A stretch of 64,000 bases of DNA from an uncultured Verrucomicrobiota bacterium. GTDB taxonomy: Bacteria > Verrucomicrobiota > Verrucomicrobiia > Methylacidiphilales > CAMAQI01. This document shows, piece after piece, positions 32,854-55,812 of the stretch (positions within the stretch are counted from its first letter, which is position 1; each line of letters starts with the position of its first letter). The position numbers and the translations under genes were made by a program. The stretch is taken from the NCBI GenBank assembly GCA_964555235.1, contig CAZKRU010000001.1, positions 7,915 through 71,914 of the forward strand. The letters are read 5' to 3'. A model generated the notes under the pieces. The model ran no database searches and was not told where the DNA came from. It was given only the letters and a program-made list of their open reading frames with translations.

Positions 32854-32868
32854 TTTATCATATACTAT
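32854..32868. promoter_or_regulatory. Weak copy of TTATCATATGATAAT palindrome in the divergent pseudopilin/sulfatase intergenic region
   Basis: tttatcatatactat is essentially the left half-site only (11/15). Confidence 0.3.
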
Positions 32869-33124
32869 ATTTTATGAAATCAAAATATTCTCAGATTTAC
32901 ATTCTTAATTACAAGTCAATTACAACCCAAGGCGAAACTCATTCCGATCATTATTTATCCTATGCGAATTAATTGTAAAATTGGCAGCCAACCCTTGCGG
33001 AGTCTTCTTTGAAGACGAGATCCCCCTTCCATGAAGCCATGATTCTGGAGCCTTTACGAGGAGTAATTTACAGAATTGCCTTACCAACTTTACCCACCCA
33101 GACTTCAACGTCAACCGAACCCTC

Positions 33125-34447
33125 ATGAACCCTCCCCTTGTTACACGCCCCAATCTCATTTTCTTTTTTACCGATCAGCAGCGCTGGGATTCCACAGGCC
33201 TCCACGGGAATCCACTCGACCTCACTCCCAATTTGGACCGGATTGCTCGAGCTAACACTCACCTGAGTCACTGCTTTACTCCTCAACCGGTTTGCGGCCC
33301 CGCACGCGCCTGCCTTCAAACCGGCATGTACGCCTCCTCTCATGGATGCATCAGCAATGGCGTCCCCCTCCCCGACAACCTACCCCTTCTGGCAAACTCC
33401 TTTCGCGAAGGCGGCTATGAAACGGCTTATATTGGAAAATGGCATTTAGCAGGACGCCAAAATCCACGAGGACCGGTCCCCGTCGAAAAACGGGGCGGCT
33501 ACGAATATTGGCTCGGCGCAGAAGCGATCGAACTAGTCACCGAGCCGTACCGCTGCAACGTTTATAATCAGGAAAATCAGGAGGTCATTCTTCCCGGCTA
33601 TCGCGTCGACGCACTCACAGATGCCGCGATCCGCTATGTCTCCACCCCAAAAGAAAAACCGTTCTTTCTATTTTTCTCTCTCTTGGAGCCACACCATCAA
33701 AACAACACCGATGACTACCCTGCCCCCACCGGATACGCAGATCGTTATCAAGGAAGATGGACTCCTCCCGATCTCCAAGCACTTGGAGGCACTTCTCCGC
33801 AACACCTCGGAGGCTATTGGGGAATGGTCCGGCGCATTGACGAAGCCTACGGACGACTGATGGACTCCCTCCAAAGCCTAAACCTTCTGGAGAAGACCGT
33901 CGTGGTCTTTACCTCCGATCATGGCTGTCACTTTAAGACGCGAAACAGCGAATACAAACGCTCGTGCCACGACGCCTCCCTCCGGGTTCCCGGAGTGATT
34001 AGCGGCCCCGGATTTTCGGGGGGCGGACAAATCGACAAACTCATCTCTCTCGTCGACCTCCCTCCCACCCTGCTAGAAGCCGCCGGACTTAAAGTTCCCG
34101 AGACCATGCAAGGCCGCTCACTCCTTCCCCTCCTTCGAGGAAATGCCGCTCCATGGCCGGAAGAAGTTTTCTTTCAAATCAGCGAGGCCTCTTTGGGTCG
34201 GGGAATTCGCACGCGGCGTTGGAAATACGCCGTCACAGCCCCCGCCCACATCAATACCCGTGATCGCGATTCCTCACTTTATCTGGAAACCGAGCTCTAC
34301 GATTTGAACTCCGATCCTTACGAACTCACGAACTTGATTGATAAATCAGGAATGGAACCGATCCTTTCTCCGTTACGCGAAACCTTACTCAAAAGAATGC
34401 GCGAAATTGGCGAACCCGAAGCAGTCATTCAAACCCGAGTGAAATAA
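33125..34447 (+). CDS. Sulfatase (formylglycine-dependent, S1 family)
   Basis: 440 aa with LIFFFTDQQRWD, CGPARACLQTGMY (the C-x-P-x-R motif) and VVFTSDHG. Confidence 0.9.
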   Translation: MNPPLVTRPNLIFFFTDQQRWDSTGLHGNPLDLTPNLDRIARANTHLSHCFTPQPVCGPARACLQTGMYASSHGCISNGVPLPDNLPLLANSFREGGYETAYIGKWHLAGRQNPRGPVPVEKRGGYEYWLGAEAIELVTEPYRCNVYNQENQEVILPGYRVDALTDAAIRYVSTPKEKPFFLFFSLLEPHHQNNTDDYPAPTGYADRYQGRWTPPDLQALGGTSPQHLGGYWGMVRRIDEAYGRLMDSLQSLNLLEKTVVVFTSDHGCHFKTRNSEYKRSCHDASLRVPGVISGPGFSGGGQIDKLISLVDLPPTLLEAAGLKVPETMQGRSLLPLLRGNAAPWPEEVFFQISEASLGRGIRTRRWKYAVTAPAHINTRDRDSSLYLETELYDLNSDPYELTNLIDKSGMEPILSPLRETLLKRMREIGEPEAVIQTRVK

Positions 34448-34459
34448 CGAGAATCAACC

Positions 34460-35491
34460 ATGAATCCCTCTCAAAACCGTGCTTTCGCTTTTCTTAAAAG
34501 ATGGACCGCTTTTTTTTGTTTTCTCCCTGGACTCGCCATCTCGCAGGAGGCCCCATCCTCCGAAAAAAACACCAACAGCCCTTATGTCCCAACGGACTAT
34601 ACCCAGGTTTTTGCGGATGAATTCAACGAGTCCAAGCTCGATCTCACGCAATGGTGGACGCGCTACATTTATAAAAACGGAATGCAGGACACCTTGAACA
34701 ACGAAAAGCAGCGCTACCGGGAAAACGAGAACCATCAAATGACCGGAAGCGCTCTTAAGCTCATAACCAAAAAAGCGACTGCCGATTCGACCCCAGAAGC
34801 GCCTTATGACTCCGGCATGATCCGTTCGAAAAAAACCTTCAAATATGGTTATTACGAATCCCGAGCAAAGATCCCGGAGTTTCTGGGCGTCCGAGCCTCC
34901 ATGTGGCTGACGAGCGACGCCACTCCTGACGGGGTTACCAGCTGGCCACCGGAGATCAACATCTTCTCCGTCGTCATCAATGTCAAAGAGGATATGGGGC
35001 CGCAAAAAAATGATTCTCCCAATATGGTTTTCACGGGAGTCGCCAATCGCAACAAGCAATATCCGAACCTCTGTCCGTGGGGCGTTACCAATCTCTTTCT
35101 GGATCCAAGTTATTCCGTCGCTCCCAAAGATCCCGGGGCCGGCTCCTACCATGCCCCCTTCAAGTTCACCGAGGACTTTCATGTTTTTGGAGCCCTATGG
35201 GAAGAGGATGACACGGTCACTGTTTTTATCGACGGCAAAAAGATCGTAAAACGAAGTTACCGCTGGGTGAATAAAGAAGGAATTGAAGCTCCTTTCGCAC
35301 ACCTCATGTTTACCCTTGCCGTCGGTGGATCGTGGGCTGGACGTTTCGGAATTGAAGATGCCAGCTTTCCTCAATCCATGGAAATTGATTATGTCCGGGT
35401 CTATCAGAGGAAAGATAAAATTCTGACCGGACAAAGCACGATTGGACGTGATCTTCTTTATCTTCTAAAATCAAGTAATCCCGCTCCATGA
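34460..35491 (+). CDS. GH16-like protein lacking the catalytic E-x-D-x-x-E motif
   Basis: 343 aa with a signal peptide, ~55% identical by eye to the next gene. The position of the catalytic motif reads SWPPEINIFSV. Confidence 0.8.
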   Translation: MNPSQNRAFAFLKRWTAFFCFLPGLAISQEAPSSEKNTNSPYVPTDYTQVFADEFNESKLDLTQWWTRYIYKNGMQDTLNNEKQRYRENENHQMTGSALKLITKKATADSTPEAPYDSGMIRSKKTFKYGYYESRAKIPEFLGVRASMWLTSDATPDGVTSWPPEINIFSVVINVKEDMGPQKNDSPNMVFTGVANRNKQYPNLCPWGVTNLFLDPSYSVAPKDPGAGSYHAPFKFTEDFHVFGALWEEDDTVTVFIDGKKIVKRSYRWVNKEGIEAPFAHLMFTLAVGGSWAGRFGIEDASFPQSMEIDYVRVYQRKDKILTGQSTIGRDLLYLLKSSNPAP

Positions 35492-36501
35492 AATCCATTC
35501 GACATTCCCTCACCCGAATCATCCTCGGCTTTCTCCTTCTGACAAACTTCATCCTGGGTGATGAAACGCCGACCGACAGCCTGTACATTCCTGAAGGATA
35601 TCTCAAAGTCTTCGAGGACAACTTTAGTGAATCCAAATTGAATACCGCCAAATGGTGGACCCGCTACATTTATAAAAATGGAATGCTGGCAACGCTCAAT
35701 CAGGAGCGTCAACTCTTTCGTGACAACGAGAATCATCTCTTCACCGGCAAATCACTCCAACTCACCGCTCGAAAAGTGAAAAATGAAAAAAATCCGTATT
35801 TTCTTTATGAATCCGGAATGATTCGATCGAAGATGACGTTCAAATATGGCTATTACGAATCCCGCGTCAAAATGCCGGGTGGCTTGGGTGTCTGGCCTGC
35901 CTTCTGGCTCAACAGTGATTCGGATTCAAACGGGAAGGCGGAGTGGCCTCCGGAAATTGACATCTTCGAGTTCGTGATCGATGGAAAAACGGAGCTACCC
36001 AACATGGTTCACACCGGGGTGATCAACAATACGCACAAGGATAAAAAATCACATCCCTGGAAGGCTGAAAATCTCTATGTCGACCCCGATTACAAACCCG
36101 GGAAGTCCCTCTCTGGAGGCGCCTACACCGCTCCGTTTAAATTCCCCGACGACTTCCATACCTTCGGTGCCTTGTGGGATACGGATGATACCGTGACCAT
36201 TTTTATTGATGGAAAGAAGATCGTGCAACGGCGTTATCTTTGGATCCATAAGGACGGCCGCGAGGCCCCGTACGCCCACGTACTACTAAATCTTTCCATT
36301 GGCGGAAACTGGGCCGGTCGCAATGGAATTGACGACTCCGCTTTTCCGCAATCCTTGGAAGTTGATTATGTTCGGGTCTATCAGAAAAAGGATCAGATCA
36401 AAACCGGCCAAAGCACGATTGGACATGATTTGATTTATAAACCTCCTCAAGAGGAAGAGGTTCCCGCCCCTTCAAAAGCGAATAGCGTCACTGAGGATTA
36501 A
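35488..36501 (+). CDS. Glycoside hydrolase family 16-like enzyme
   Basis: 337 aa with a signal peptide, GVWPAFWL and EWPPEIDIFEF (the GH16 E-x-D-x-x-E motif). An ATGA overlap links it to the upstream paralog. Confidence 0.85.
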   Translation: MKSIRHSLTRIILGFLLLTNFILGDETPTDSLYIPEGYLKVFEDNFSESKLNTAKWWTRYIYKNGMLATLNQERQLFRDNENHLFTGKSLQLTARKVKNEKNPYFLYESGMIRSKMTFKYGYYESRVKMPGGLGVWPAFWLNSDSDSNGKAEWPPEIDIFEFVIDGKTELPNMVHTGVINNTHKDKKSHPWKAENLYVDPDYKPGKSLSGGAYTAPFKFPDDFHTFGALWDTDDTVTIFIDGKKIVQRRYLWIHKDGREAPYAHVLLNLSIGGNWAGRNGIDDSAFPQSLEVDYVRVYQKKDQIKTGQSTIGHDLIYKPPQEEEVPAPSKANSVTED

Positions 36502-36513
36502 CTCAGCAACGTC

Positions 36514-37311
36514 ATGTATCCCCTCACCATCTCCCGCCTGATCGAGCAGATCCAACAGCAAATGCCGCCTCCGTTGGAAAAGACAAGCGTCGACTCCTTT
36601 AAATGCGGAGATCCGACACAACCCCTTCGAGGCATTGTAATAACCTTTCTGGCAACCTACGCCGTATTGGAGCAAGCCGTCTCACTCAATGCTAATCTCA
36701 TCATTACGCACGAACCCACATTTTTTTCGGGTCGCGATGCCTCCGATTGGCTTGAAAGCGATTCGACCTATCAAGCGAAGCGGGAGTTTTTAATAAAACA
36801 TCAACTCACGGTTTGGCGCAATCACGACGGAATTCATTACCGTCGACCGGATGGAATTTTCACCGGAATGATCGAAAAGCTCGGATGGAAGAATCGAATG
36901 ATTCCCGAAGACCACTCCTTGATCGAAATTCCGTCCCTCACCCTTGAGCAGCTTGCCCACCACTGCAAGGAGCGGCTTGGAATTCAAAAAATTAAAATCG
37001 CGGGAAATCCCCTCCAACCGTGCGAGACCCTCGCCCTTCTTCCGGGAGCCAGCGGAGGAAAATCGCAAATTGAGCAACTCCGCCGAAAAAATGTCGATGC
37101 CGTCATTTGTGGGGAGAGCCCGGAATGGGAAACCTGCGAGTACGTCCGGGATGCCACACGCCTTGGAAAACGAAAGGCACTCATTGTGCTCGGTCACGCG
37201 AATAGCGAAGAAGCCGGAATGGAATGGTTTGCGAACTGGTTAAGACCGCAGGTTCCCAAGGAAATCCCAATCACCCATATCCCCACAACCGATCCGTTTC
37301 AATTCATTTAA
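36514..37311 (+). CDS. NIF3/YbgI-family dinuclear metal-centre protein
   Basis: 265 aa with LIITHEPTFF, WRNHDGIH and LGHANSEEAG motifs. Confidence 0.75.
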   Translation: MYPLTISRLIEQIQQQMPPPLEKTSVDSFKCGDPTQPLRGIVITFLATYAVLEQAVSLNANLIITHEPTFFSGRDASDWLESDSTYQAKREFLIKHQLTVWRNHDGIHYRRPDGIFTGMIEKLGWKNRMIPEDHSLIEIPSLTLEQLAHHCKERLGIQKIKIAGNPLQPCETLALLPGASGGKSQIEQLRRKNVDAVICGESPEWETCEYVRDATRLGKRKALIVLGHANSEEAGMEWFANWLRPQVPKEIPITHIPTTDPFQFI

Positions 37312-38381
37312 GACGTTCGTCCTTGAAAAATTGCGGTAGATCCCCGCTGAATCAACTGCACAGGAAGCGTATAATGCCGGGGCTGACCGGTCAAAAGGCC
37401 GCTTCCGCGCTCCATATTAATTTGCGCCGCCTTTTGTCCCATCTCATACCCATTTTGCTCAATGGTTGTTAAGGGCGGAACCATCACCTCGGCATTACTG
37501 GAATTTCCGACACCGACCACACTCAAATCGCGTGGCAACGAAAGGTTCAAACGCTTTGCCGCACGATAAACTTGTTGCGCCAATCCATCGGTGCAGGCGA
37601 TAACGGCGCTGATGGAAGCGTCTTGACGAAGCGACTCCAATATCTGCTCCGTCACATCCGAGTCAATCGGCACGCGCATTAAACGAACCACTGTATTGGG
37701 AATTGGCTTGACCTCACTAAGCAATGCCTCACTTCGATGATCGGCCCATCCGAGATTTTCTGGACCCGAAACCACTAAGAAATTCCGATGATTCAAAGCC
37801 GCAAGATGCGAGACGATCAACTTGGCGATCATGAATTCGTCCGAAGCGAGTGTATCCGCAGACAACTGAGGCATCGCATGATCAATGGAGACCAATGGAA
37901 TCTGTCGGCTCTCAAACTCCTTCAAACAGTCTGCATAAAGCGAGGTGAAACGAGGCCAGAGAATCACTCCATCCACCCAGTGATCCAACAACCGATGAAT
38001 CTGCTGAATCGCGTAATCCTCACTTTTGATTTCAGGGCGAATACTATCCCACAAAAAGATTGGAAGATGATCCGCCTCTATGAGGCGATCGTGAATTCCG
38101 TGAACCACCGCCGTCCAAAATGATCCTTGAGGATGAACCAAAACTCCTATCATCCGGCTTTTACCACTGCGAATTCCACGGACCAGCGCATTGGGACGAT
38201 AGCCCATTTTTTTAGCCATCTCAATTACTTTGGCCTGCGTCTTCAAGGCGGCCCCCTTGTCCCCTCTCAAAATAAGAGAAACCGTCGCCCGGGAAACCCC
38301 TAGAGCTTTCCCAATGGCTGCCTGACTGACTCTCTTGGGGCGAAGTCCCTGCCACGATTTTGAAGGCTTAATTTTACTCAA
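37308..38381 (-). CDS. LacI-family transcriptional regulator
   Basis: 357 aa. The N-terminal HTH is VSQAAIGKALGVSRATVSLILRG, and the rest is a periplasmic-binding-protein-like core. Confidence 0.88.
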   Translation of the reverse strand: MSKIKPSKSWQGLRPKRVSQAAIGKALGVSRATVSLILRGDKGAALKTQAKVIEMAKKMGYRPNALVRGIRSGKSRMIGVLVHPQGSFWTAVVHGIHDRLIEADHLPIFLWDSIRPEIKSEDYAIQQIHRLLDHWVDGVILWPRFTSLYADCLKEFESRQIPLVSIDHAMPQLSADTLASDEFMIAKLIVSHLAALNHRNFLVVSGPENLGWADHRSEALLSEVKPIPNTVVRLMRVPIDSDVTEQILESLRQDASISAVIACTDGLAQQVYRAAKRLNLSLPRDLSVVGVGNSSNAEVMVPPLTTIEQNGYEMGQKAAQINMERGSGLLTGQPRHYTLPVQLIQRGSTAIFQGRTS

Positions 38382-38413: not shown

Positions 38414-38428
38414 CTATCAGATGATAAT
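38414..38428. promoter_or_regulatory. TTATCATATGATAAT-type palindrome, copy in LacI/GH130 divergent region
   Basis: ctatcagatgataat (13/15), 33 nt upstream of the LacI-family start. Confidence 0.45.
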
Positions 38429-38528: not shown

Positions 38529-38556
38529 TTGACATATGATAATTTTTTGCTTTAAT
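38529..38556 (+). promoter_or_regulatory. Near-consensus sigma70-type promoter overlapping a TTATCATATGATAAT-type palindrome
   Basis: TTGACA (38529-34), a 16-nt spacer and TTTAAT (38551-56) end 6 nt before the ATG at 38563. The palindrome ttgacatatgataat (38529-38543, 13/15) covers the -35 box and spacer. Confidence 0.5.
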
Positions 38557-38562
38557 TGTAAC

Positions 38563-39561
38563 ATGAATTCATCCAATTCAAAAATCCAGATTGTCAGCAA
38601 CTCAATCCCCAATATCCCTTGGCAGGAACGTCCTATCGGAGACATCTCGGTTGTATGGCGCTACTCAAGCAACCCAGTGATCCCGAGAAACCCCTTTCCA
38701 ACAGCCAACAGCGTCTTTAACAGCGCAGTGGTTCCCTTCAATGGGAAATTCGCCGGCGTCTTCCGCTGTGATGACACCTCCCGACTTCAGAACCTCCACG
38801 CGGGCTTTAGCGATAACGCCATCGACTGGAAGATCAACCCGGAGCCCATCCGATTTATCGGAGCGGATTCGGAAATCGCAAAATGGAACTTCGGCTACGA
38901 TCCCCGCGTTGTATGGCTCGAGGATCGATTCTATATCACCTGGTGCAATGATTATCATGGTCCCACCATTGGTGTGGCGTGGACCCAGGATTTCAAAACC
39001 TTCCACCAGATTGAGAATTCATTTCTCCCTTACAACCGAAACGGCGTTCTCTTTCCTCGCAAGATCAACGGAAAGTATCATCTCCTCAGCCGCCCCAGCG
39101 ACGGAGGACACACCGCATTCGGGGATATTTTTGTCAGCAGCAGCACCGACATGGTTCACTGGGGCTGCCACCGTCACGTCATGTCGAAAGGGGGAACTCC
39201 CTGGCAGGGAACCAAAATCGGCGCTGGCCCAATTCCCATTGAAACTACCGAGGGCTGGCTGATGTTTTATCACGGCGTTCTCAGTTCCTGCAATGGCATG
39301 GTTTATGCCTGGAGCGCAGCACTGCTGGATCTCGAAAAGCCCTGGAAGGTGATACACCGCCCAAAACCCTATCTTCTCGCACCCTGGGAAATTTATGAGT
39401 GCGTGGGAGATGTCCCAAATGTCACCTTCCCCACTTCCGCCCTGACGGATGCAACAACCGGTAGAATCGCCATCTATTATGGCTGCGCAGATACCGTAAC
39501 GGGAATAGCATTCTGCCAAGTAGATGAAGTAATCGCTTGGCTGAAATCAAATTCCCTTTAG
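38563..39561 (+). CDS. GH130-like glycoside phosphorylase/hydrolase (beta-mannoside type)
   Basis: Motifs FGYDPRVVWL, YNRNGVLFPRKINGKY, WLMFYHGV and IYYGCADT are typical of GH130 five-bladed propellers. The ORF-track start at 38536 lies inside the promoter palindrome, so M10 (38563) is preferred. Confidence 0.82.
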   Translation: MNSSNSKIQIVSNSIPNIPWQERPIGDISVVWRYSSNPVIPRNPFPTANSVFNSAVVPFNGKFAGVFRCDDTSRLQNLHAGFSDNAIDWKINPEPIRFIGADSEIAKWNFGYDPRVVWLEDRFYITWCNDYHGPTIGVAWTQDFKTFHQIENSFLPYNRNGVLFPRKINGKYHLLSRPSDGGHTAFGDIFVSSSTDMVHWGCHRHVMSKGGTPWQGTKIGAGPIPIETTEGWLMFYHGVLSSCNGMVYAWSAALLDLEKPWKVIHRPKPYLLAPWEIYECVGDVPNVTFPTSALTDATTGRIAIYYGCADTVTGIAFCQVDEVIAWLKSNSL

Positions 39562-39636
39562 TAGCCTTTGGACTTGCTAAGCCCTACAGACTGCTAGGCT
39601 TTTTCTACAAGAAAAAGCTCCCAACCCGAACACCTC

Positions 39637-41184
39637 ATGAGAATTCTCTACATTGATATTGATAGCCTGCGCCCAGATCATCTGGGCTGCTACGGATACC
39701 ATCGCAACACCAGTCCGTCGATCGATCAGATCGCTCGTGACGGAGTGATCTTTCGAAAAACATACACCGTCGACTCCCCCTGTCTTCCTTCCCGTTCCGC
39801 ACTCTATTCCGGACGTTTTGGAATTCAAACTGGTGTCGTCGGACACGGCGGAATCTCCTCACAGCCAAAAATCCAAGATATGAATACCCGCCGCTTTCGT
39901 GACACTTTTGTGGAGCAAGGCTTCATCCGAGAGCTTACCCGCAAAGGCTGGCACACGGCGATGATCAGTCCTTTTGGCCAACGTCACGCCGCCCACTGGT
40001 TCTACGCCGGCTTTTTGGAGATTCATAACACCGGCCACGAAGGAATGGAATCCGCAGAACAAATCCAGCCCTACGTCGACAAATGGATGCATGAAAATGC
40101 AAAGCATGACAATTGGTACTTGCACGTGAATTACTGGGATCCGCACACTCCTTACCGGGTTCCCCTTGAATATGGGGATCCCTTCGCCAACGATCCGCTT
40201 CCAGCCTGGCTCACCGACGAGAAGCTCATTGAGCGACACTCAAAAAAAGTCGGCCCTCACACTGCCCAGGATATCGGAGGCATGTACGATGACCGCGAAG
40301 ATCCCCGCTACCCGCGTCACCTCGGAAAAATCTCCAACCTGAATGATGTTCGCCGCTTGATTGACGGCTACGACACCGGCATCCGATACGCCGATGATCA
40401 CATCGCCAAGATCATCGCGACCCTCAAAGCCGCAGGCGTTTACGAAGAGACCGCCATCATTATTTCCGGGGATCACGGAGAAAGCTTCGGAGAACTCGGG
40501 ATCTACGGCGAACACGCCACCGCGGATGAATCCGTCAACCACATCCCGATGATCATCAAATGGCCCGGAGGAAGAAAAGGAGCGGAGGAAAATGGGCTTC
40601 ACTACAATATCGATCTCGTTCCCACTCTCATGGACCTGACGGAAACCAGAAAACACGAAATTTGGGACGGAAAATCCTTCGCTGAATCCATCACCAAGGA
40701 GAGCGAAACCGGGCGGAACGAGTTGATCCTGAGTCACTGCGCCATGACCTGTCAGCGCTCGGTTCGCTGGAGCCAATGGCTCTACATCCGCACCTATCAT
40801 GACGGATTCCATCTCTACCCCCAGGAGATGCTCTTTGATATCGAACGTGACCCCTACGAACAAAATGATCTCACCGCGCAGCATCCCGAACTGTGCAAGG
40901 AAGGAGCATGGCGGCTCCTTCGCTGGCATGATGAGCAGATGCAGAAAATGGCAAAGTATTCTACGGACTCCGTGGATCCGCTCTGGAGCGTCATGCGAGA
41001 AGGCGGCCCTTTTCACGCCAACCTTCAAGAGCAGACCCGCGACCCCGGCGGCATCGACGGCTTTCTTAAATACCTGAAGCGCCTAGATGAAACCGGCCGC
41101 AAAGAGGGAAGCGACGCTCTGCGCAAAAAATACGCCGCATTCCTCCCTTCTGAAAAAATTAATCCCCGTCGATCGGATTCCTGA
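39637..41184 (+). CDS. Sulfatase (formylglycine-dependent, S1 family)
   Basis: 515 aa with ILYIDIDSLRPDHLGCYG, SPCLPSRSALYSG (C-x-P-S-R) and IISGDHGE. Confidence 0.9.
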   Translation: MRILYIDIDSLRPDHLGCYGYHRNTSPSIDQIARDGVIFRKTYTVDSPCLPSRSALYSGRFGIQTGVVGHGGISSQPKIQDMNTRRFRDTFVEQGFIRELTRKGWHTAMISPFGQRHAAHWFYAGFLEIHNTGHEGMESAEQIQPYVDKWMHENAKHDNWYLHVNYWDPHTPYRVPLEYGDPFANDPLPAWLTDEKLIERHSKKVGPHTAQDIGGMYDDREDPRYPRHLGKISNLNDVRRLIDGYDTGIRYADDHIAKIIATLKAAGVYEETAIIISGDHGESFGELGIYGEHATADESVNHIPMIIKWPGGRKGAEENGLHYNIDLVPTLMDLTETRKHEIWDGKSFAESITKESETGRNELILSHCAMTCQRSVRWSQWLYIRTYHDGFHLYPQEMLFDIERDPYEQNDLTAQHPELCKEGAWRLLRWHDEQMQKMAKYSTDSVDPLWSVMREGGPFHANLQEQTRDPGGIDGFLKYLKRLDETGRKEGSDALRKKYAAFLPSEKINPRRSDS

Positions 41185-43723: not shown

Positions 43724-43730
43724 TCATCCC

Positions 43731-46541: not shown

Positions 46542-46607
46542 AGAGGAGTCCTTTTGTTGCAACTTAAGATGAGTTTGCGAGAAAAACCCAACGCAGTCAA
46601 TATTAAC

Positions 46608-46720: not shown

Positions 46721-49576
46721 TTACTGGGTCAAAGAGAACCCGTCCACCGTGGTCGTGAACGTATTGGTAATCGCTGGCGTCCAATCGGGATCATCATAGT
46801 GAACCAACCCCGAGCCACAGGTCGCCACCCCAACAAAGATCTTGTTGGAGAGATCAACCGTAACCGTTTCACCCACTTGCTTCCAAGTCACTCCATCTAC
46901 GGACAGGTAAGAGGTGAATTGATTTCCCTCACGCACCAACCGGAGCCATTGAGGCTCGACATCCACCGGTCTGAATGTTTTGCCATTAGCCACCTGCTGA
47001 TCCGCACCCCAGACGCTGCGATGAAACATCCGCCCGCCCATATAGCCACTCCAGCTGGACCCCAAATAACGGGCTGAGCTTTTGATCGCCACGCCAACGC
47101 ATTTATCGAGCCCAAGAGCGGATTCCCGCGCCATCAGACCAACGTTACCGTAATTATCCGTACGGATTCCACTCGATGTATTAACCGTTTTCCAGCTGGT
47201 CACTCGAACTTTCATGTCAAAGTTGCCCTCAATATACCGGCAGTTGAAGTAGAAGTCATCGCCACTTCCTCCACTCGAATTGGTATATCCGCCGCCCATC
47301 GTGGAGAGGGTGCCGGAGCCTGTTGATTCATTCATGACTCCCGAAACATCGCCAATCTGCCCAACATTCAGGGCATTCCATCCGTAGATGCGATAAACGG
47401 AAAGATTGATGTTCCCAGCTTCACCGCCGTAACCATCCACGGCAATCTGGTAGGTGACTCCCCCTTGAAGTGAAACAATTAACTGACTCTGACGTAACAC
47501 TCCATCCTGGATATCATCATTCTCCGCGACCAGTTGCAGAGCCGAGAGACTCCCGCCGGTATAGATCGAAAGAAGCGTATCGAAATTCGATCCGTTCGTA
47601 TCGATGATATAGTCGCCCGAAACCGGAGCTGTCCAAGAATACCAGACCGAATGAATTCCCCCTCCACCAGGGAACTGGGGCTCACCGGCTTCCGTAGTTG
47701 CCGCTGCATTGGTCCCGGTGGTCGCAAATCGATCTCCACTCAGAATCATTCGATTCGCAAAGCTGTCATTCGCCGGAGGAACCCCAACGGTCACCAAAGC
47801 CATCCCTGTCACCCCTCCCACCCCATCCACTGCGATTTTGTAGATCGTATCCTTAACCGCATTGAAGTTCACAGAGCTGGTCACCCCACCGCTCGGGTCG
47901 TTATCGTTGGCCGCGATGAGCTGATACGGTCTGCTCGCGGTTCCTTTTTTGTAAAGGCCGAGAACGGTATCAAAGGTACTCCCCTTGGTGTTAACATAAG
48001 CAACCCCCGTTGCCGGCGCTTTCCAGAGGAACCAGACCGAGTGACCCCCGGCTTGACCCGCAATCGCCGGCTCACCCGATTCCTTGGTCGCCTCGCCTGT
48101 CGCCACGCGTGTCGTGATCCCGTTCACCGAACCGAGATTCATTGGAGCATTATGGTCATCATTGATCGGACGAAAATCCGTGGATTTCAGTGCGTTCAAG
48201 ACATTCAGCTCCCCCGTCTGACAATAGCGATCGAGATAACCGGAGGGGACCGCGCCACGAAGCATCCGGTTGATCAGCTTCTGATAGGACTCATTCGGAA
48301 ACTGCGCTTTCATCAACGCAAAGGTTCCCGTGACATGAGGGGCAGCCATCGAACTTCCACTGCAGAACAGATAGGCGGAATCCGATGCCGTTCCTGTCGA
48401 ATAGATATTTTCGCCCGGAGCAAAGAGATTCACCGCTCCCATGCCGTAATTCGAAAAATAGGATTTCTGACCCTTGAGATTCATGGATCCCACCGTCACA
48501 ATATTTTCCAGCATATAGTCGCCTGGATACGATCTCCGAAGATCGAGATTTGTCTCACTATTCCCCGCGGCAACGACCACAATAATCCCTTGATCACGAC
48601 AAGCCCCGATCGCATCGCGCAGAGCCTGAGAGTAACCGGCACCACCCCAACTGCAATTGATCGCTTGAGCTCCCATTTTTCGAGCATATTCGATTCCCTC
48701 AATATTATCAGAAACATAAGACCTTCCATTCGAATCAAAGGTCTTTACCGCCATCAGCTGTACCTTCCAGGCCACGCCAGCAATCCCTACTCCGTTATTG
48801 GCCACCGCACCAATGATTCCCGCGCAATGGGTTCCATGGAAATGATCTCCCATACAATTCCCGGCATTTGGACTCTTCGGGTCCACCAGACAATTGACCC
48901 CATAAAAGTCATCCACATAGCCATTCCCGTCATCATCAACCCCATTCCCAGGAATTTCCTTTGTATTTTTCCACATGTTGCCCGCCAGATCCTGGTGTGT
49001 GTAGCGAATCCCGGTATCCACCACCGCCACCACCACGGATTCTGCCGAGTTACGAATATCCCAAGCTTCGGGAGCATCGACATCTCGATCCACAATTCCA
49101 GTCCGACTTTCTCCACTTCCCTCGTCAAACACCGTTTGTCCGATGTTATGGAGGCCCCACTGCTTCAGATATTCACCATCGTTCGGAATGGCGCTCAAAG
49201 AGATCGCATAGTCCACCTCCGCATACTCCACCGATGGATCCTTACGCAGACGGGCTAGAACCACTTCAGGCTTTTCTCCCTTTGCCGTCTCCAACAGCTG
49301 AATTCCCAGACGACGTGAAAGCATTTTCTTGCTTTTGGTTTGATGGCGCGCATTCACAGACGCCACCTTGGCATCGGTCGCCTGAGCCGTTTCCCCCGCC
49401 ACCCGCTTATACTTCACAATGAAGTGATTTTCACGAAGTGGCATAGGAGCCTCGGATTCGGCCGAAAGACCTTCAATTGGGGACCCCGAATTCGCCAATT
49501 GGGCAGAAAGCGGCATCGCCAGCATTAGCCATCCCATCAAGACTCCTGAAATTATCATATGGTAATTAATCTTCAT
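46721..49576 (-). CDS. Secreted subtilisin-like serine protease (peptidase S8), long paralog with extra C-terminal lectin-like domain
   Basis: 951 aa. Triad motifs are VAVVDTGI (D), HFHGTHCAG (H) and SGSSMAAPHVTG (S). PPC-like repeats are followed by a ~220-aa beta-sandwich-like tail. Confidence 0.92.
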   Translation of the reverse strand: MKINYHMIISGVLMGWLMLAMPLSAQLANSGSPIEGLSAESEAPMPLRENHFIVKYKRVAGETAQATDAKVASVNARHQTKSKKMLSRRLGIQLLETAKGEKPEVVLARLRKDPSVEYAEVDYAISLSAIPNDGEYLKQWGLHNIGQTVFDEGSGESRTGIVDRDVDAPEAWDIRNSAESVVVAVVDTGIRYTHQDLAGNMWKNTKEIPGNGVDDDGNGYVDDFYGVNCLVDPKSPNAGNCMGDHFHGTHCAGIIGAVANNGVGIAGVAWKVQLMAVKTFDSNGRSYVSDNIEGIEYARKMGAQAINCSWGGAGYSQALRDAIGACRDQGIIVVVAAGNSETNLDLRRSYPGDYMLENIVTVGSMNLKGQKSYFSNYGMGAVNLFAPGENIYSTGTASDSAYLFCSGSSMAAPHVTGTFALMKAQFPNESYQKLINRMLRGAVPSGYLDRYCQTGELNVLNALKSTDFRPINDDHNAPMNLGSVNGITTRVATGEATKESGEPAIAGQAGGHSVWFLWKAPATGVAYVNTKGSTFDTVLGLYKKGTASRPYQLIAANDNDPSGGVTSSVNFNAVKDTIYKIAVDGVGGVTGMALVTVGVPPANDSFANRMILSGDRFATTGTNAAATTEAGEPQFPGGGGIHSVWYSWTAPVSGDYIIDTNGSNFDTLLSIYTGGSLSALQLVAENDDIQDGVLRQSQLIVSLQGGVTYQIAVDGYGGEAGNINLSVYRIYGWNALNVGQIGDVSGVMNESTGSGTLSTMGGGYTNSSGGSGDDFYFNCRYIEGNFDMKVRVTSWKTVNTSSGIRTDNYGNVGLMARESALGLDKCVGVAIKSSARYLGSSWSGYMGGRMFHRSVWGADQQVANGKTFRPVDVEPQWLRLVREGNQFTSYLSVDGVTWKQVGETVTVDLSNKIFVGVATCGSGLVHYDDPDWTPAITNTFTTTVDGFSLTQ
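49552..49566. promoter_or_regulatory. TTATCATATGATAAT-type palindrome overlapping 5' end of S8 protease ORF
   Basis: ttatcatatggtaat (14/15). It lies within codons 4-8 of the annotated ORF and contains an alternative ATG (M7). Confidence 0.35.
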
Positions 49577-49672: not shown

Positions 49673-49687
49673 TTATCATATAGTAAT
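49673..49687. promoter_or_regulatory. TTATCATATGATAAT-type palindrome in S8/GH36 divergent intergenic region
   Basis: ttatcatatagtaat (13/15). Confidence 0.4.
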
Positions 49688-49877: not shown

Positions 49878-49892
49878 TTTTCATATGGTAAA
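49878..49892. promoter_or_regulatory. Degenerate TTATCATATGATAAT-type site at GH36 gene start
   Basis: ttttcatatggtaaa (12/15). It contains the ORF-track ATG at 49885. Confidence 0.3.
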
Positions 49893-51858
49893 TTCCTCCC
49901 ACTTTCCTTTCCTCGCACTCAACCGCAACAGCCAAACCCGACGACAGCGCGCCCCCCAGGGCGACTGGATCCATGTTCGGAAGGATTTCAACTCAACAAA
50001 AACCTCCCGACTTTTTTCTCTTCCCCCCTCCTGTCGTTGGATGGCGCTGCGACGAACCAATCTCTACTGGATGCAACCCGCATTTGGCTCCGCCCTCGAT
50101 ACAATCCCCCCAGAGACTCAATTTCTTCTTTTCCAACAAAAGAAGACCTACACCCTTTTTTTGCCGCTCATCGAAGGAGATCTGCGCGCGACCCTGAAAG
50201 GAAATGGCCCTCACGTGGAGATCGCCTTTGACGGGGCACTTCCCGACTCAGTACCAAAATCAATGCGCGCCCTCTACATGGCCTCCGGTCGCGAGCCTTT
50301 TACACTGATCCGCGACTCCATGAGCACGCTTTCGAGAGAGATGAAGTCATTCCGGCTCCGTGAAGAGAAGCCGGCTCCGGAATTTCAAGATTACTTCGGC
50401 TGGTGTACCTGGAACGCCTTCTACGACAAAGTCGATGAGCGAAAAATGGACGCCGGACTTCAATCGTGGAAAAAGGGCCGTTTCATTCCCAGCCTCGTTC
50501 TCCTCGATGACGGATGGCTCGATCGCAAGGTCGATCTCCTCAACGATTTTCCCGCCGACAAAAAAAAGTTTCCCCGAGGCCTCGCTTCGCCCGCCCGAAT
50601 GCTAAAAGAGAAATATGGAGTCAAGCGATTCGGAATCTGGCACGCCTTTCAGGGCTACTGGGCCGGATTAAATCCAGACGGGGCCCTGGCCAAACGCTAC
50701 CGGACGACCCCCAATCAGGGAAAAATGCGACCGTGGGAGAAAGAAAATGAGAAAGTCATGGAATTAAACCTCGTTCATCCCGACGAGATCTATCGCTTTT
50801 ATCATGAATTTTATCGTTACCTCAAAAGTCAGGGCGTAGAGATGGTTAAAGTCGACGGACAATCGTCACTTGAAGTTTTTTGTCGAAATGTTCTAGGGCG
50901 AGTCAGCGCCATGCGCGCCTATCAGGAGGCATTCCAAAGCGCCGGCGCTTCCGCTTTCGGATCAAACCTCCTTCACTGTATGTCCCACAGCAGCGACGTG
51001 ATTTATCACTCAAATCTCTCCAACTGCATCCGCAATTCAGACGATTATTTTCCCCAAAAAGAGAATTCCGCACAACAGCTTCACCTTCAAATAAACGCCT
51101 ACAATGCCCTCTGGATCAGCCAAGTGGCAGTTCCGGATTGGGATATGTTTCAAAGCCATCATCCTCATTCCTCCTACCATGCTGCCGCCCGCGCCATCAG
51201 CGGCGGACCGATTTATGTCTCAGATAAACCAGGAAAACAGAACTTCCGCCTCCTCGAAAAACTCGTCTGGTTTGAAAATGGAGACACCCGAACCCTCCAA
51301 TGCCCTAATCCGGCATTGGTCACTCGCGATCGACTGATGACCGATTGCACCCAAGAGCCCAAGCTCTTAAAAATCTTTAATCAGGTCCACGGAATCGGAC
51401 TCCTCGGATTTTTTCACACAAATAAATCGGGAGACCGAATTCAGGACTCATTCAAACCGACGGATGTCGAGAATCTCAAGGGAGCTCTGTTTGCCGTCTG
51501 GCGACATCGGGCTGAGACCTTGGAAATCCTCACTCGCCGACAAGCCTCCAAGCAAATTTTAAAAAATACCGAGTGGGAACTTGCCATCATCTCCCCAATC
51601 CATCACCAGACCGCAATCCTGGGGCTTTTGGACAAATATAATAGCCCCGCTGGAATTGAAAAAGTCGAGTCGTCCAAAAGCTGTCTTAAATTCGAAACGA
51701 AAGACGGAGGAAGAGTCGGCATTTATTGTCGCCATAAACCCCTCCAATTGATGCTTAACGGCTGTAAAACAACGTTCAACTATCATCCCAAAACAGGACT
51801 TCTTGTCATTTCACTTCCTAAGCGAAAATCATCCACGGTAGTCGTGATACTAAAATAA
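49885..51858 (+). CDS. GH36-clan raffinose synthase/Sip1-like alpha-galactosidase
   Basis: 657 aa with YFGWCTWNAFY, VLLDDGW, MVKVDGQ, RNSDDYFP and VPDWDMFQS, all characteristic of the raffinose-synthase/Sip1 branch. The exact start is uncertain. Confidence 0.85.
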   Translation: MVNSSHFPFLALNRNSQTRRQRAPQGDWIHVRKDFNSTKTSRLFSLPPSCRWMALRRTNLYWMQPAFGSALDTIPPETQFLLFQQKKTYTLFLPLIEGDLRATLKGNGPHVEIAFDGALPDSVPKSMRALYMASGREPFTLIRDSMSTLSREMKSFRLREEKPAPEFQDYFGWCTWNAFYDKVDERKMDAGLQSWKKGRFIPSLVLLDDGWLDRKVDLLNDFPADKKKFPRGLASPARMLKEKYGVKRFGIWHAFQGYWAGLNPDGALAKRYRTTPNQGKMRPWEKENEKVMELNLVHPDEIYRFYHEFYRYLKSQGVEMVKVDGQSSLEVFCRNVLGRVSAMRAYQEAFQSAGASAFGSNLLHCMSHSSDVIYHSNLSNCIRNSDDYFPQKENSAQQLHLQINAYNALWISQVAVPDWDMFQSHHPHSSYHAAARAISGGPIYVSDKPGKQNFRLLEKLVWFENGDTRTLQCPNPALVTRDRLMTDCTQEPKLLKIFNQVHGIGLLGFFHTNKSGDRIQDSFKPTDVENLKGALFAVWRHRAETLEILTRRQASKQILKNTEWELAIISPIHHQTAILGLLDKYNSPAGIEKVESSKSCLKFETKDGGRVGIYCRHKPLQLMLNGCKTTFNYHPKTGLLVISLPKRKSSTVVVILK

Positions 51859-52101: not shown

Positions 52102-52881
52102 TCAGCTTCCACCCCTATTCAATGGCTCCATAGGCGTCTCATCCGCAATTTTCTGCAACCGCTCCGCTTCTTCCTTTTTCAAGTCCGGCAATACCCCTTT
52201 TTTATTGATCTTCGGCCCCACAATCTGATGGGGCATTCCGACACTGGGCTGTCCAAAGAACGAACGGTAAAAAACACAGGCCGCCAAATATCCCCCATGC
52301 GTCGTTGGATGATGGCTATCCCGATACAACTGAAACGGAGGATTCTTCCCCGGCCCCATAAAAGCCAGCCAAGCGGGCCCCACTGGCACCACTCCCACAT
52401 TCAACTCTTTTCCGAGCGAGGTGTAGGCCTCCTGAAGGGGAGCCATCTCCTCCTGCTTAATTTCCGTCGGCACCTGATTATAGACCGGCCAGGTCATATA
52501 TAAAACCGTCTGAGCCCCGGCTTTTTTAATTTCTGCATCAAACATCCGGACATATTTGTTCATATCCTCCCGATGATCCTTCGGGTAGGTCGCCTTCTCC
52601 TGCAATACCACGTAATCCCATTTCTCACTCTTGATTTTCGCCAACGCCTCCCCTTTCTCCCAATGCTGCTGCAAACAGGATGCCCCGATTAAACTTGTAA
52701 AAAACTCAAACTCTCGCCCGGAGGATTTCGCCATCGCCGCAATGATCGGAGGAATCTCCCCCGCGCCAATGAGACTGTTCCCAATAAACATCACCTTGAG
52801 TTTTTTGGGAGCGGAATCCTCAGAATATCCCGAGAGCGGAAGAAGCCACAGGAGAAGCAATACGAACGATGTTATTTTCAT
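52102..52881 (-). CDS. Secreted SGNH-like hydrolase (DUF4886-like)
   Basis: 259 aa with a signal peptide, KVMFIGNSLIG (GNS in place of GDS) and YRDSHHPTTHGGYLAA (DxxH region). Confidence 0.7.
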   Translation of the reverse strand: MKITSFVLLLLWLLPLSGYSEDSAPKKLKVMFIGNSLIGAGEIPPIIAAMAKSSGREFEFFTSLIGASCLQQHWEKGEALAKIKSEKWDYVVLQEKATYPKDHREDMNKYVRMFDAEIKKAGAQTVLYMTWPVYNQVPTEIKQEEMAPLQEAYTSLGKELNVGVVPVGPAWLAFMGPGKNPPFQLYRDSHHPTTHGGYLAACVFYRSFFGQPSVGMPHQIVGPKINKKGVLPDLKKEEAERLQKIADETPMEPLNRGGS

Positions 52882-52908
52882 GAATGTGATTTCGCCTAAA
52901 GTGAACGG

Positions 52909-53505
52909 TTATTCTGAAAAATCGACCGTGAACTGGGAGTTCGCAGGATTTTTTACAAAGTCACAACGCATCTGATAGACGAATTTTTTAGATCCCTTTG
53001 TCCGACTATCTTGCAGCCCAAACCAAGCAGCTGAGGTCTGAATACTGAAATGCGCTCCCATGGCGTCCGTAATCGTAATCCGACGAGGCTTGCCCTGTTC
53101 CAAATACTGATCATTACTCTCAATCGGAAAGGGAACCGCCTCTTTGCCAGCAATCGAATATTTTCCACCGAGATTAAATTTGGAGGGAAGATTGACCTGC
53201 CACTTAAAAGCCTTCGATCCTTCCGGAACGCCAGAGTAGGTAAAAGTGATTCTAGCACCATCAATTTTGGCATTGAGTTTCGCTCCACACGGATAAGTGG
53301 CGTCACCCGTCGAAGGATCAAATGCGGGTTGCTCGATCTTCGTCTCCCCCAACATCAAATTAGGAACCGTCATCAGAAACTCTCCCATTCCTGGAGCACT
53401 CAAAACGATTCCTTTTCCTCCGAATGAGAGCTGGGGAGATTCTGCAAAAAGAGAGCTTACCATTAAAGTAAAGCCGCCGATGACTGCCAGTAGTATTTGC
53501 TTCAT
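52909..53505 (-). CDS. Secreted hypothetical protein
   Basis: 198 aa with signal peptide MKQILLAVIGGFTLMVSSLFA. It sits in an operon position between a GH gene and the SGNH-like gene. Confidence 0.6.
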   Translation of the reverse strand: MKQILLAVIGGFTLMVSSLFAESPQLSFGGKGIVLSAPGMGEFLMTVPNLMLGETKIEQPAFDPSTGDATYPCGAKLNAKIDGARITFTYSGVPEGSKAFKWQVNLPSKFNLGGKYSIAGKEAVPFPIESNDQYLEQGKPRRITITDAMGAHFSIQTSAAWFGLQDSRTKGSKKFVYQMRCDFVKNPANSQFTVDFSE

Positions 53506-53557
53506 TTTATTTTCCTTGATTGTAATTGAGCTGTTATCTGACCTCGATCAAAACCGA

Positions 53558-55804
53558 TTAATTCGTTGCCAACTTTGCCCGCCCCCATTTACCTCGATCC
53601 ACTGAATTCTTTCCCGTTCCATTCCAAACCAAAGCCTGTTTGCGGCGCTCCCCATCGTCACTATTATTCACCGCCACATCAAAGAGGAGTTCCTTCCCAT
53701 CCGCAGGAGTGATCCCCATCACTTTCCACGGAATCGTCGCCACCAGTGTATATCCGTCACCGGAGACTTCCCTCACCACCAAAGCACTGCAGTCTCCTGC
53801 ACCTGCCTCATTTCCTGCAACGAAGATCTCAGGTTTCTCACCGCTTGCGCTGATGCTAATATGCCGATCCGTAAATAACATCGGCCCCCCTTCATCGGGT
53901 TTCTGGTCGCCGACAAAGATTTCAATTCCATCGCCCAGCCAAAGCTTCTTCCCCTTTTGTTGATTCTTCATCGGGATCGGATCCTTAACCAGAATATGAA
54001 GATATAAATTCGTCACATCCCAACATAAACGAAAATCCGCTCTAAAATCATCGGATGGCTTTCCTTCAACAATACGAGTCCCATCAATGGAATCCGCCGG
54101 ACGTCCCGGCCAATTTGCCGTGGTTCCATCCAGTTTGATCCCAGGAAGCGATTGCGCAATGGAAAGCACCTTCCTGGAAGTCCCCATCTCCTTGGCAGTA
54201 AACCGCGGATCATCAAAATGAAACGGCGCCTTCTCCCCCATCATAATTGCATAAATCTGATCATTCGACAGCTTCGCTTGGGATACCAGCTCTTCATAGG
54301 GACGATCCACCACATTAATCAGTCCGATATTATTCCCCTCTCCATTAAATCCCTCAAAAAAGCGTCCTGTGATTGATTGATCCATATAGCTGAACCATTC
54401 GGAACCGACGACATAAGGAAGTGCAGCGGAAGATTCCAAATAATTGCGATAGGCCAGTCCACGCTCATTCTGATTTCTAACTTCCTTGCGCGCCAGCAAC
54501 CCCTGATCATCCGCACAGAAATGCCACTCACTCAAAATAATCGGCTTTCCCCCACTACGCTCGTGAACCTTCTTTAAAAACGATTCCTCAATCGCATAGG
54601 TATAATAATTAATACTCAGCACATCCAAATATTTCCCTCCCGCACGAACCACAATCTCACTCCCCGCCGTTCCCGCCGTCCAGCGACTTCCAATCAGCAA
54701 ATGATTCGAATCGTGCTTGCGGTAAACCCGATGAATCAATGAGTAGTAAGTCTCCATGAAAAGCTCAAAGAATTCCTTCATGTCCTGAGCCCCTGCCTCC
54801 GTACGAATGAACAACGGCTGATCTTTTAATTCATCAAAGCTTGCAAACGGTTTCGCTGGATTCCATGCCTCGTTAAATTTTTGGATCTCTCCATATTTTT
54901 TCTGGAGCAACTCAACCAACCGTAACTTTGATGCACAGGTGCTTTTGTAAGTCGGAATCAACTTCGGAATATTTTCAAAATGCTGTTCATTTCCCAAAAA
55001 GTATCCGATGAGCAGCGGATCCGAAGCACCGGGAGCAAGGGCCTTGGCAAAGGCGTCATCCAGCGCTTTTTCATTCCCGGGCGCAAACGGATCTAATAAT
55101 TTGGACGCCCCGATCTTATCCGGAAACAACTGAATCCCTGGAATTTTTCCCGACGGCAAATGCGCCACGTACGGAAAGTTAAGACCCTGCATCACTCCAG
55201 GCGAATAGCGGGAAAAGGCCCCCGCGCTGTTAAATCCCCAGGCACGAAGCCGTTCTACCGTTTGACGGCCAAATTCCTCGGGGTCATACGATTTCCCAAA
55301 TTTACGAATCCAATTCGCAATATAAAATGACATCACTCCCGCAGGACCTTCCGGTCGCCAGACCCTCGCAAACTCCCCCTTCTTTTCCGGAATCCACTCG
55401 TACGTCGTCTCCCGACCATCAACCAGCGTGTAATCATCAATATTGGCATTCACTCCACACGGTCCAAGGTGAAAGAACACATTCCCTTCGGGAGTCACCA
55501 AAACCAGACGCTCTCCTGCCTTTTCAACATGAAAAAAACCGGTCTTTTTTAGCTTATACTTTTCACCGCTCCCAGAGAGCCCACCAAACTTATCCAATGC
55601 CGTCGGTCCTGCCTTGGGGAGCTCTCGCTTCTGCTTCTCCACATCCGCTTTTAATTCCTCCTCACTCGTAATCTTATCAGGATAATTTTTCCTGACGCTC
55701 TGACCAAAGCGATCCACAATAAAGCTACCACTTGGAGCGGATTGCGCGAATTCCGCACCCAAAATAAGCCCGACGACCCCCAAAAGGAGCGCATTATTTA
55801 TCAT
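53558..55804 (-). CDS. Secreted GH-A-like glycoside hydrolase (same catalytic family as the tandem array) with C-terminal CBM9-like domain
   Basis: 748 aa. LIGYFLGNEQHF and PIILSEWHF are colinear with the NE and E motifs of the array paralogs. The C-terminus has FRLCWDVTNLYLHILVKD...GDGIEIFVG. Confidence 0.88.
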   Translation of the reverse strand: MINNALLLGVVGLILGAEFAQSAPSGSFIVDRFGQSVRKNYPDKITSEEELKADVEKQKRELPKAGPTALDKFGGLSGSGEKYKLKKTGFFHVEKAGERLVLVTPEGNVFFHLGPCGVNANIDDYTLVDGRETTYEWIPEKKGEFARVWRPEGPAGVMSFYIANWIRKFGKSYDPEEFGRQTVERLRAWGFNSAGAFSRYSPGVMQGLNFPYVAHLPSGKIPGIQLFPDKIGASKLLDPFAPGNEKALDDAFAKALAPGASDPLLIGYFLGNEQHFENIPKLIPTYKSTCASKLRLVELLQKKYGEIQKFNEAWNPAKPFASFDELKDQPLFIRTEAGAQDMKEFFELFMETYYSLIHRVYRKHDSNHLLIGSRWTAGTAGSEIVVRAGGKYLDVLSINYYTYAIEESFLKKVHERSGGKPIILSEWHFCADDQGLLARKEVRNQNERGLAYRNYLESSAALPYVVGSEWFSYMDQSITGRFFEGFNGEGNNIGLINVVDRPYEELVSQAKLSNDQIYAIMMGEKAPFHFDDPRFTAKEMGTSRKVLSIAQSLPGIKLDGTTANWPGRPADSIDGTRIVEGKPSDDFRADFRLCWDVTNLYLHILVKDPIPMKNQQKGKKLWLGDGIEIFVGDQKPDEGGPMLFTDRHISISASGEKPEIFVAGNEAGAGDCSALVVREVSGDGYTLVATIPWKVMGITPADGKELLFDVAVNNSDDGERRKQALVWNGTGKNSVDRGKWGRAKLATN

Positions 55805-55812
55805 ATGATAAT
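55798..55812. promoter_or_regulatory. Perfect TTATCATATGATAAT palindrome containing the start codon of 53558..55804
   Basis: ttatcatatgataat (15/15). Upstream on the coding strand are TTGACA (reverse complement of 55835-55840), 16 nt, TAAGTT, 8 nt and then the ATG. Confidence 0.5.

Follow-up and report, generated by a model that had tools for sequence, protein, structure and literature searches.

A TA-centred palindrome, very probably the operator of a LacI-family regulator, in a glycan-utilisation cluster of Verrucomicrobiota

The locus and its palindromes

We analysed a 64,000-nucleotide stretch of DNA from an uncultured Verrucomicrobiota bacterium (assembly GCA_964555235.1, contig CAZKRU010000001.1, positions 7,915 to 71,914), hereafter the window, in which a short palindrome precedes nearly all gene groups of a cluster for sugar degradation, among them a LacI-family regulator gene. 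An earlier note, made from the letters of this DNA, had described the palindrome as a 15-mer and proposed it as the operator of an island-specific regulon, with the LacI-family protein as candidate binder. Pfam agrees with the gene identities given there: LacI, glycoside hydrolase (GH) family GH130, sulfatases, the operon of MFS transporter, dehydratase and esterase, S8, GH36-like and CBM9. The genes concerned are the following.

26847..32780, - strand: Verru_Chthon cassette proteins B, C, A and D; probable target operon (NCBIfam)
33125..37311, + strand: sulfatase, two GH16 genes and a NIF3-like gene; possible target operon (Pfam)
37308..38381, - strand: LacI-family transcription factor, 357 amino acids (aa), listed with a TTG start; the protein proposed to bind the palindrome (Pfam)
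38563..41184, + strand: GH130 beta-1,4-mannoside phosphorylase and sulfatase; candidate target operon (Pfam)
41226..46613, - strand: CBM4_9/GH42-like protein, esterase, enolase-superfamily sugar-acid dehydratase and MFS transporter; candidate target operon (Pfam)
46721..49576, - strand: S8 subtilase; candidate target gene (Pfam Peptidase_S8)
49885..51858, + strand: GH36-like protein of the alpha-galactosidase/raffinose-synthase family; candidate target gene (Pfam Raffinose_syn, 7e-119)
52102..55804, - strand: GH50-like catalytic domain with CBM9, a 198-aa protein and DUF4886; candidate target operon (Pfam CBM9_1, DUF4886)

The candidate operators, with their matches to the 15-mer where these were counted, are as follows.

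32855..32868: weak, half-conserved site TTATCATATACTAT, 75 nt 5' of the Verru_Chthon cassette and 257 nt 5' of the sulfatase-GH16 operon
32955..32968: second weak candidate, TTATCCTATGCGAA, in the same divergent region; 13.8 bits, tentative
38414..38428: CTATCAGATGATAAT, 13/15, proximal to the regulator gene and 32 nt 5' of its start; candidate autoregulatory site
38529..38543: TTGACATATGATAAT, 13/15, on the side of the GH130-sulfatase operon, whose probable GH130 start (38563) lies ~20 nt further on
46607..46621: 14/15, in a one-directional context 5' of the CBM4_9/GH-like, esterase, dehydratase and MFS operon
49552..49566: 14/15, overlapping the first codons of the S8 protease gene
49673..49687: 13/15, second site of the divergent region between the S8 and GH36-like genes, 96 nt 5' of the S8 start
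49878..49892: 12/15, overlapping the first possible GH36-like start codon
55798..55812: perfect copy, 15/15, in a one-directional context, overlapping the sole upstream start codon of the GH50-like/CBM9 gene

We scanned the window for TTATCATATGATAAT on both strands, allowing up to 3 mismatches. This gave 17 strand-matches, against a mean of 1.14 and a maximum of 5 in 100 dinucleotide shuffles. They represent seven palindromic sites, the weak one at 32955 and the positions 3877 and 7323, each with 12/15. There are thus seven strong copies of TTATCATATGATAA(T) and two weak ones near 32.9 kb. Every copy lies in a 5' region: the 15 matching positions all fall within the 9,273 bp of non-coding DNA and the edges of genes, and the 54,727 bp of coding DNA hold no match with up to 3 mismatches. 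The intergenic DNA of the window is 57% A+T, and a first-order Markov model of non-coding composition yields a mean of 0.41 and a maximum of 6 matches where 15 are observed. With up to 2 mismatches, no match occurs in the window beyond 32.8-55.8 kb.

These results bear out most of what the earlier note had described. The seven positions and their match counts are as it gave them, except that the site placed at 46608 begins at 46607. The weak site it reported at 32854 is present (32854/32855), perfect in the left half only. The placement of the palindromes in or at the edge of 5' regions holds as well. So does the remark that a different motif is used outside the cluster, because the matches at 3877 and 7323 are copies of another sequence, GATTTAACGTGTGATCAT, described below.

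The palindrome follows one group of regulators

We compared loci of other Verrucomicrobiota using a scan matrix built from the seven window sites only. The test set consisted of 18 loci with orthologues of the LacI-family gene (231,307 bp) and the control set of 98 loci with non-orthologous LacI genes (962,043 bp). At 16 bits or more, 21 matches were found in the orthologue loci and 1 in the control loci (Fisher p 1.9e-14); at 14 bits or more, the counts were 27 and 6 (Fisher p 1.8e-14). At the latter threshold a match is present in 12/18 orthologue loci but in 5/98 controls, and the orthologue loci without a match are mostly very short contigs. Several of the positive loci have 62-64% G+C, where such an A+T-rich word is especially unlikely. 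The proposal that the palindrome is a regulon operator, with the LacI-family protein as candidate binder, is thus supported by the standard comparative test on sequence: the orthologue loci carry the motif at the regulator and at its targets, and the loci of other LacI genes lack it.

The matches recur at equivalent genes. The palindrome lies 5' of the regulator gene in three loci (L003, L005 and L118) and on its start codon in five more (L004, L006, L013, L114 and L116), all of them counterparts of the window site at 38414. It stands 0-15 nt from the start of GH50-like/CBM9 genes that are 56-59% identical (55798 in the window, 4096 in L003, 9676 in L005, 9194 in L013). It is also found upstream of GH130 genes (38529 in the window, 6949/6829 in L034, 8944/8847 in L115, 7570 in L116), and when the GH130 upstream regions of four genomes are aligned, the palindrome is the sole conserved island. 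In L116 nearly all transcription units at most 10 kb from the regulator carry a site.

An unbiased count of 7-mers in 12 regulator upstream regions returned mainly pieces of the palindrome, tied with two A/T-rich words; no CG-centred alternative motif was returned from these regions. The only regulator gene common to the loci is the LacI gene.

The LacI-family protein

The product of 37308-38381 is a full-length member of the LacI/GalR family. It has an N-terminal LacI helix-turn-helix (HTH) at residues 26-64 (PF00356, 31 bits for a cutoff of 27), which aligns to the HTH of CcpA, and an effector core matched by PF13377, PF00532 and PF13407 (Peripla_BP_1/3/4). Alignments to the structures of CcpA, PurR, LacI and RbsR run over the full length (residues ~23-350) and cover the HTH, the hinge and the periplasmic-binding-protein-like core. 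Among NCBIfam equivalogs the best match is RbsR, with 150 bits for a cutoff of 382. All scores are far below the cutoffs, and the protein is therefore not an orthologue of any named regulator.

Its orthologues, retrieved by protein search, are spread across Verrucomicrobiota at 47-60% identity (Methylacidiphilales, Verrucomicrobiales, Lacunisphaera and strain LW23, the isolate from which L005 derives). In this group the HTH and hinge segments VSRATVSLxLRG and MGYRPNALVxSIRSGKSR are nearly invariant. Since the recognition helix and the hinge hardly change, the orthologues should read the same DNA. Two regulators are more distant relatives (L007, 41% identity; L118, 52%), the one in L118 with altered HTH residues. 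A variant of the palindrome, TTATTATATAATAA, accompanies them (L007 4228-4274, L118 9634-9647) and may reflect a drift of half-site preference.

Anatomy of the site

A logo of the 27 sites from outside the window gives a symmetric 18-mer, A-W-TTATCATATGATAA-W-T, whose central pair is T|A in 98% of cases. The full motif is thus an even palindrome of 18 bp, AWTTATCATATGATAAWT, centred on TA (CATATG), and not a 15-mer as first described. Both halves are kept in one-directional contexts (46607 and 55798 in the window; 5682, 11802, 13551 and 15189 in L116, between tandem genes), which fits a dimeric protein rather than a directional promoter box. Sites adjacent to regulator genes tend towards a less perfect TTAGCA...TGCTAA variant.

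Most sites lie within ~60 nt of the downstream start codon by our own count, and in some cases the two coincide. The ATG in the middle of the palindrome is the first, sometimes the sole, possible start of the downstream gene at 55802-55804, 49885-49887 and 49556-49558 in the window, and at L004 1536, L006 2738, L013 10004, L114 10094 and L116 10019. In these last five loci the conserved N-terminus of the regulator, M-L/M-K-P-K-R, begins at the central ATG of the operator (ATG-CTA-AAA reads M-L-K), and this start seems genuine for the regulator gene, as it does for the CBM9 gene of the window, which has no start candidate further upstream. Such starts suggest 5' leaders that are very short or absent. 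We considered whether this is a general design rule. The central ATG is the first in-frame start in ~11 of ~37 sites by our own tally, which equals the chance level (one in three) for sites just upstream of a gene, and we therefore claim no start-codon rule.

Some units carry paired sites, whose spacings, taken by hand from the coordinates, are 115, 121, 205, 139, 211, 74 and 111 bp. They have no consistent helical phase, and looping between paired sites is therefore not proposed.

Comparison with known systems

Operators of the LacI family are typically even palindromes of 16-22 bp, located at -140 to -30, and 72% of the members have a site at their own gene (Ravcheev et al. 2014, PMC4052901, a RegPrecise reconstruction). 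In that survey the central pair is CG in 1173 of the 1303 reconstructed motifs and another pair in 49; Verrucomicrobiota are not mentioned in its main text. The earlier note had suggested a comparison with motifs of this type, and the likeness is partial. The palindrome is even, has a length within the usual range and a fixed distance between half-sites, co-occurs with the orthologues and is found at the regulator's own gene. It lacks the central CG, a feature of 90% of family motifs that is not obligatory.

The system as a whole resembles local sugar repressors of the LacI/GalR family (RbsR, CcpA, PurR) in its HTH, hinge helix and type-I periplasmic-binding-protein core, and in a local carbohydrate regulon clustered around the regulator. 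It differs from them in the TA centre, in sites mostly 0-60 nt from starts instead of -140 to -30, and in the 'leucine lever' residue of the hinge, which is Ile here by our reading of the alignment.

The cluster is also similar to the polysaccharide utilisation loci of Bacteroidota, which likewise bring together co-regulated glycoside hydrolases, sulfatases, esterases, a transporter, surface or secretion parts and a dedicated sensor-regulator. Unlike these, the window cluster has no SusC/SusD pair and no hybrid two-component or extracytoplasmic function (ECF)/anti-sigma sensor. Control appears to lie instead with a cytoplasmic LacI-type repressor, and the envelope part is the Verru_Chthon pseudopilin cassette.

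Weighing the explanations

We consider it highly probable that the palindrome is the operator of the 37308-38381 regulator, and that the bound dimer represses the cluster until a sugar releases it. On the comparative evidence it is very probable that the LacI-family repressor of the cluster docks at this word. Several observations weigh on the other side. L039 (49% identity) is the sole orthologue locus that has ample flank and yet lacks a site; L004 and L006 carry only degenerate copies, on the regulator start codon. The centre is TA and not the CG of 1173/1303 family motifs, and the sites are nearer to start codons than the -140 to -30 typical of the family (PMC4052901). The sites at 32855 and 32955 are weak, and 32955, at 13.8 bits, scores below every threshold at which the controls are clean. 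The density of the motif in its own genome is judged from the ~35 kb of the window outside the cluster, which served as same-genome control. Lastly, binding and regulation by the LacI-family protein are deduced from sequence comparison.

This last point leaves room for a transcription factor encoded elsewhere that binds a real operator, with the LacI-family gene merely one of its targets. A TA centre is atypical for the LacI family, and the half-sites contain GATAA/TTATC words that other families also read, Fur-like proteins for example. Yet the motif tracks one LacI orthologue group and is essentially absent from the 962 kb around other LacI genes, the loci share no second regulator, and an even, dyad-symmetric site suits the LacI family; we regard an unlinked factor as improbable because of this tracking in particular. 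We also tried and rejected a Fur-type box. Such boxes are GATAAT-type hexamers repeated as 7-1-7 (or 6-6-1-6) upstream of genes for metal homeostasis, with the arm order TGATAAT-N-ATTATCA in the Fur consensus. The palindrome shares with Fur/Zur/PerR boxes an A+T-rich inverted repeat containing GATAA/TTATC, but its arms are everted relative to the 7-1-7 box (TTATCA-TA-TGATAA), and the targets are carbohydrate-active enzymes (CAZymes) and sulfatases, glycan genes and not metal genes. No Fur-family gene is among the genes identified in the loci.

Promoters could also produce such a word. The half-site TATGAT agrees with TATAAT at 5/6 positions, a simple sigma-70 scan places a -10 hexamer inside the palindrome at 38414, 38529 and 49673, and bidirectional promoters might make a -10-like TATGAT/GATAAT element look palindromic. 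A -10 element is directional, keeps a fixed distance and needs no symmetry, and the palindrome, judged on its distances to start codons, does not behave in this way: the distance varies from overlapping to more than 100 nt, and both halves are kept where there is a gene on one side only (46607 and 55798 in the window and four L116 sites). At several genes translation has no start to use but the central ATG, and a -10 box could not lie upstream of it. Moreover, other promoters of the window lack the word, which co-occurs with one regulator lineage, and in promoter and terminator scans of four operator regions the consensus matches were no more convincing than in shuffles. We think this explanation very unlikely. 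Less credible still is that the palindrome acts in the mRNA, as a hairpin hiding the start codon, or arose by chance in A+T-rich intergenic DNA. It often includes an ATG, and the intergenic DNA here is itself A+T-rich (57%). However, there is no Rfam match in 26-57 kb, the folding of four regions is no better than that of shuffles (z -1.2 to +1.1), the composition-matched model falls far short of the 15 observed matches, and the motif is kept in genomes of 62-64% G+C.

Repression by the regulator could then work as follows. A dimer of the LacI-family protein would bind the 18-bp even palindrome AWTTATCATATGATAAWT, with one HTH per half-site. In eight transcription units the sites would fall downstream of the -10 region and ahead of the start codon, or in some cases upon it, and the bound protein would block RNA polymerase. 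A sugar from the substrate of the cluster would bind the periplasmic-binding-protein-like core and release the repressor, which would switch on the whole cluster (~29 kb, ~20 genes) together with the regulator's own gene. We infer these steps, that is, physical binding, repression rather than activation, promoter occlusion and an inducer, by analogy with the family.

The neighbours most consistently conserved beside the regulator are the GH130 and the GH50-like/CBM9 genes. Because GH130 is among them, our guess for the inducer, made with low confidence, is a beta-mannoside handled by the GH130 phosphorylase; in L117 the regulator adjoins a GH2 beta-mannosidase-like gene and an MFS gene. The GH50-like, GH16, sulfatase, GH36-like and sugar-acid dehydratase genes suggest that the substrate is a sulfated galactan or some mixed glycan.

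Extent of the regulon

The earlier note had seen a regulon of CAZyme units confined to an island. CAZyme units do carry sites; non-CAZyme genes are covered too, and the regulon probably reaches left to ~26.8 kb, to include the pseudopilin cassette at 26847-32780, on grounds of orthology with other genomes. This cassette consists of four adjacent genes separated by 10, -16 and 3 nt, the arrangement that characterises Verru_Chthon, and all four score above the curated NCBIfam cutoffs: B (152 aa, TIGR02598, 65.9 for 51.4 bits), C (340 aa, TIGR02599, 277.2 for 256.5), A (1271 aa, TIGR02600, 948 for 332.3) and D (212 aa, TIGR02596, 113.9 for 70). The proteins are pseudopilin-like, with prepilin-type N-termini. 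Orthologous cassettes adjoin the LacI orthologue behind the palindrome in L013, L034 and L115. The cassette site is perfect in L013 (16893), strong in L034 (15696) and L116 (2697/2808) and weaker in L115 (17405), and the weak window site at 32855 occupies the equivalent position. Across the same divergent region, membership of the sulfatase-GH16-NIF3 operon is tentative because its upstream sites are only the weak 32855 and 32955.

That the regulon is specific to an island does not hold. Its core (the LacI gene, GH130, GH50-like/CBM9 and the Verru_Chthon cassette) keeps its synteny in distant lineages. The regulon is therefore an inherited one and does not characterise a single mobile island. 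We dropped the label 'genomic island' altogether, as the cluster does not stand out from its flanks in G+C. Immediately to the right of the last operator there is a weak phage-integrase-family gene (56966-58060, - strand). An adjacent integrase is insufficient for calling the cluster mobile, and there is no clear sign of recent mobility because of the undistinguished G+C.

Target genes and neighbouring elements

Among the solved structures, the GH130 protein is closest to UhgbMP and a beta-1,4-mannooligosaccharide phosphorylase (E ~1e-149 to 1e-141), and it is very close to the beta-1,4-mannoside phosphorylases UhgbMP and RaMP2. The GH50-like domain of the 52102..55804 operon matches structures of GH50 agarases (E 1e-44 to 1e-47). 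For the dehydratase of the 41226..46613 operon, the NCBIfam dehydratase matches are below their cutoffs.

Downstream of the GH50-like/CBM9 gene (53558-55804), the 198-aa protein (52909-53505) is homologous to the N-terminal domain of 935-1000-aa orthologues (L003 1153-4080, L005 6673-9660, L013 6386-9193). In the window this domain is therefore a separate, relocated gene and not fused. Between the S8 stop codon and the 46607 operator there is a G+C-rich long inverted repeat, CCCCGGCCTTGACGGTT...AACCGTGCAAGACCGGGG (46644-46682), which looks like a terminator insulating two tandem transcription units; a simple terminator scan did not call it.

The left-hand part of the window has a motif of its own, the 18-mer GATTTAACGTGTGATCAT, with five copies where 0.05 are expected, all on the - strand and always in the orientation of the gene:

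3877-3894, - strand: copy of GATTTAACGTGTGATCAT
7323-7340, - strand: copy of GATTTAACGTGTGATCAT
13984-14001, - strand: copy of GATTTAACGTGTGATCAT
16551-16568, - strand: copy of GATTTAACGTGTGATCAT
17775-17792, - strand: copy of GATTTAACGTGTGATCAT

The copies are upstream of three GH50-like transcription units, an S8 protease and a GDSL lipase, and three of them have an inverted partner, GATCACA, and a TTGACA ~20 nt upstream. GATTTAACGTGTGATCAT looks like a separate regulon or a dedicated promoter of this left-hand cluster. The cluster includes four tandem paralogues of ~900 aa (1111-13923, - strand), which have Agarase_CBM and a GH42-like region and are probably GH50-like. The sequences upstream of two of these genes are almost the same, indicating a recent duplication in tandem. 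Two 202-aa genes of the DUF6036 family (nucleotidyltransferase-like; 18262-18870 and 19693-20301, - strand), 1.4 kb apart, are situated between this cluster and the other glycan cluster and may be duplicated toxin-antitoxin-type modules.

Significance

To our knowledge, no transcription-factor regulon has been mapped in Verrucomicrobiota, experimentally or computationally. Nothing relevant on the motif string, on LacI regulons in this phylum or on Verru_Chthon by name turned up in the literature searched. The pair of regulator and site recurs in distant Verrucomicrobia and is an ordinary, mechanistically conventional kind of switch: a textbook local, probably autoregulated, LacI-family sugar regulon. 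What is unusual is the TA centre, the closeness of the sites to starts, a phylum outside the main text of the family survey and the presence of a Verru_Chthon cassette in the regulon.

A bolder reading, which we put forward tentatively and hold to be rather doubtful, is that the LacI-type repressor defines a verrucomicrobial counterpart of polysaccharide utilisation loci. Its core would combine an intracellular GH130 and a secreted GH50-like/CBM9 protein with the multi-copy Verru_Chthon cassette, and this cassette would be a sugar-induced machine for secretion or glycan capture. Several targets would be transcribed with no leader or hardly any, their start codon being the central ATG of the operator; the regulator gene would be one of these in at least five lineages. 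If this is true, a single protein-DNA contact covers both the transcription start and the translation start.

A validated operator would allow glycan-utilisation clusters to be delimited cheaply in abundant soil, freshwater and marine degraders. It would also provide a first functional handle on the Verru_Chthon cassette and add an example of a LacI-type hinge reading a TA-centred site. The finding leaves the general view of such switches unchanged and is useful for annotating verrucomicrobial glycan loci.

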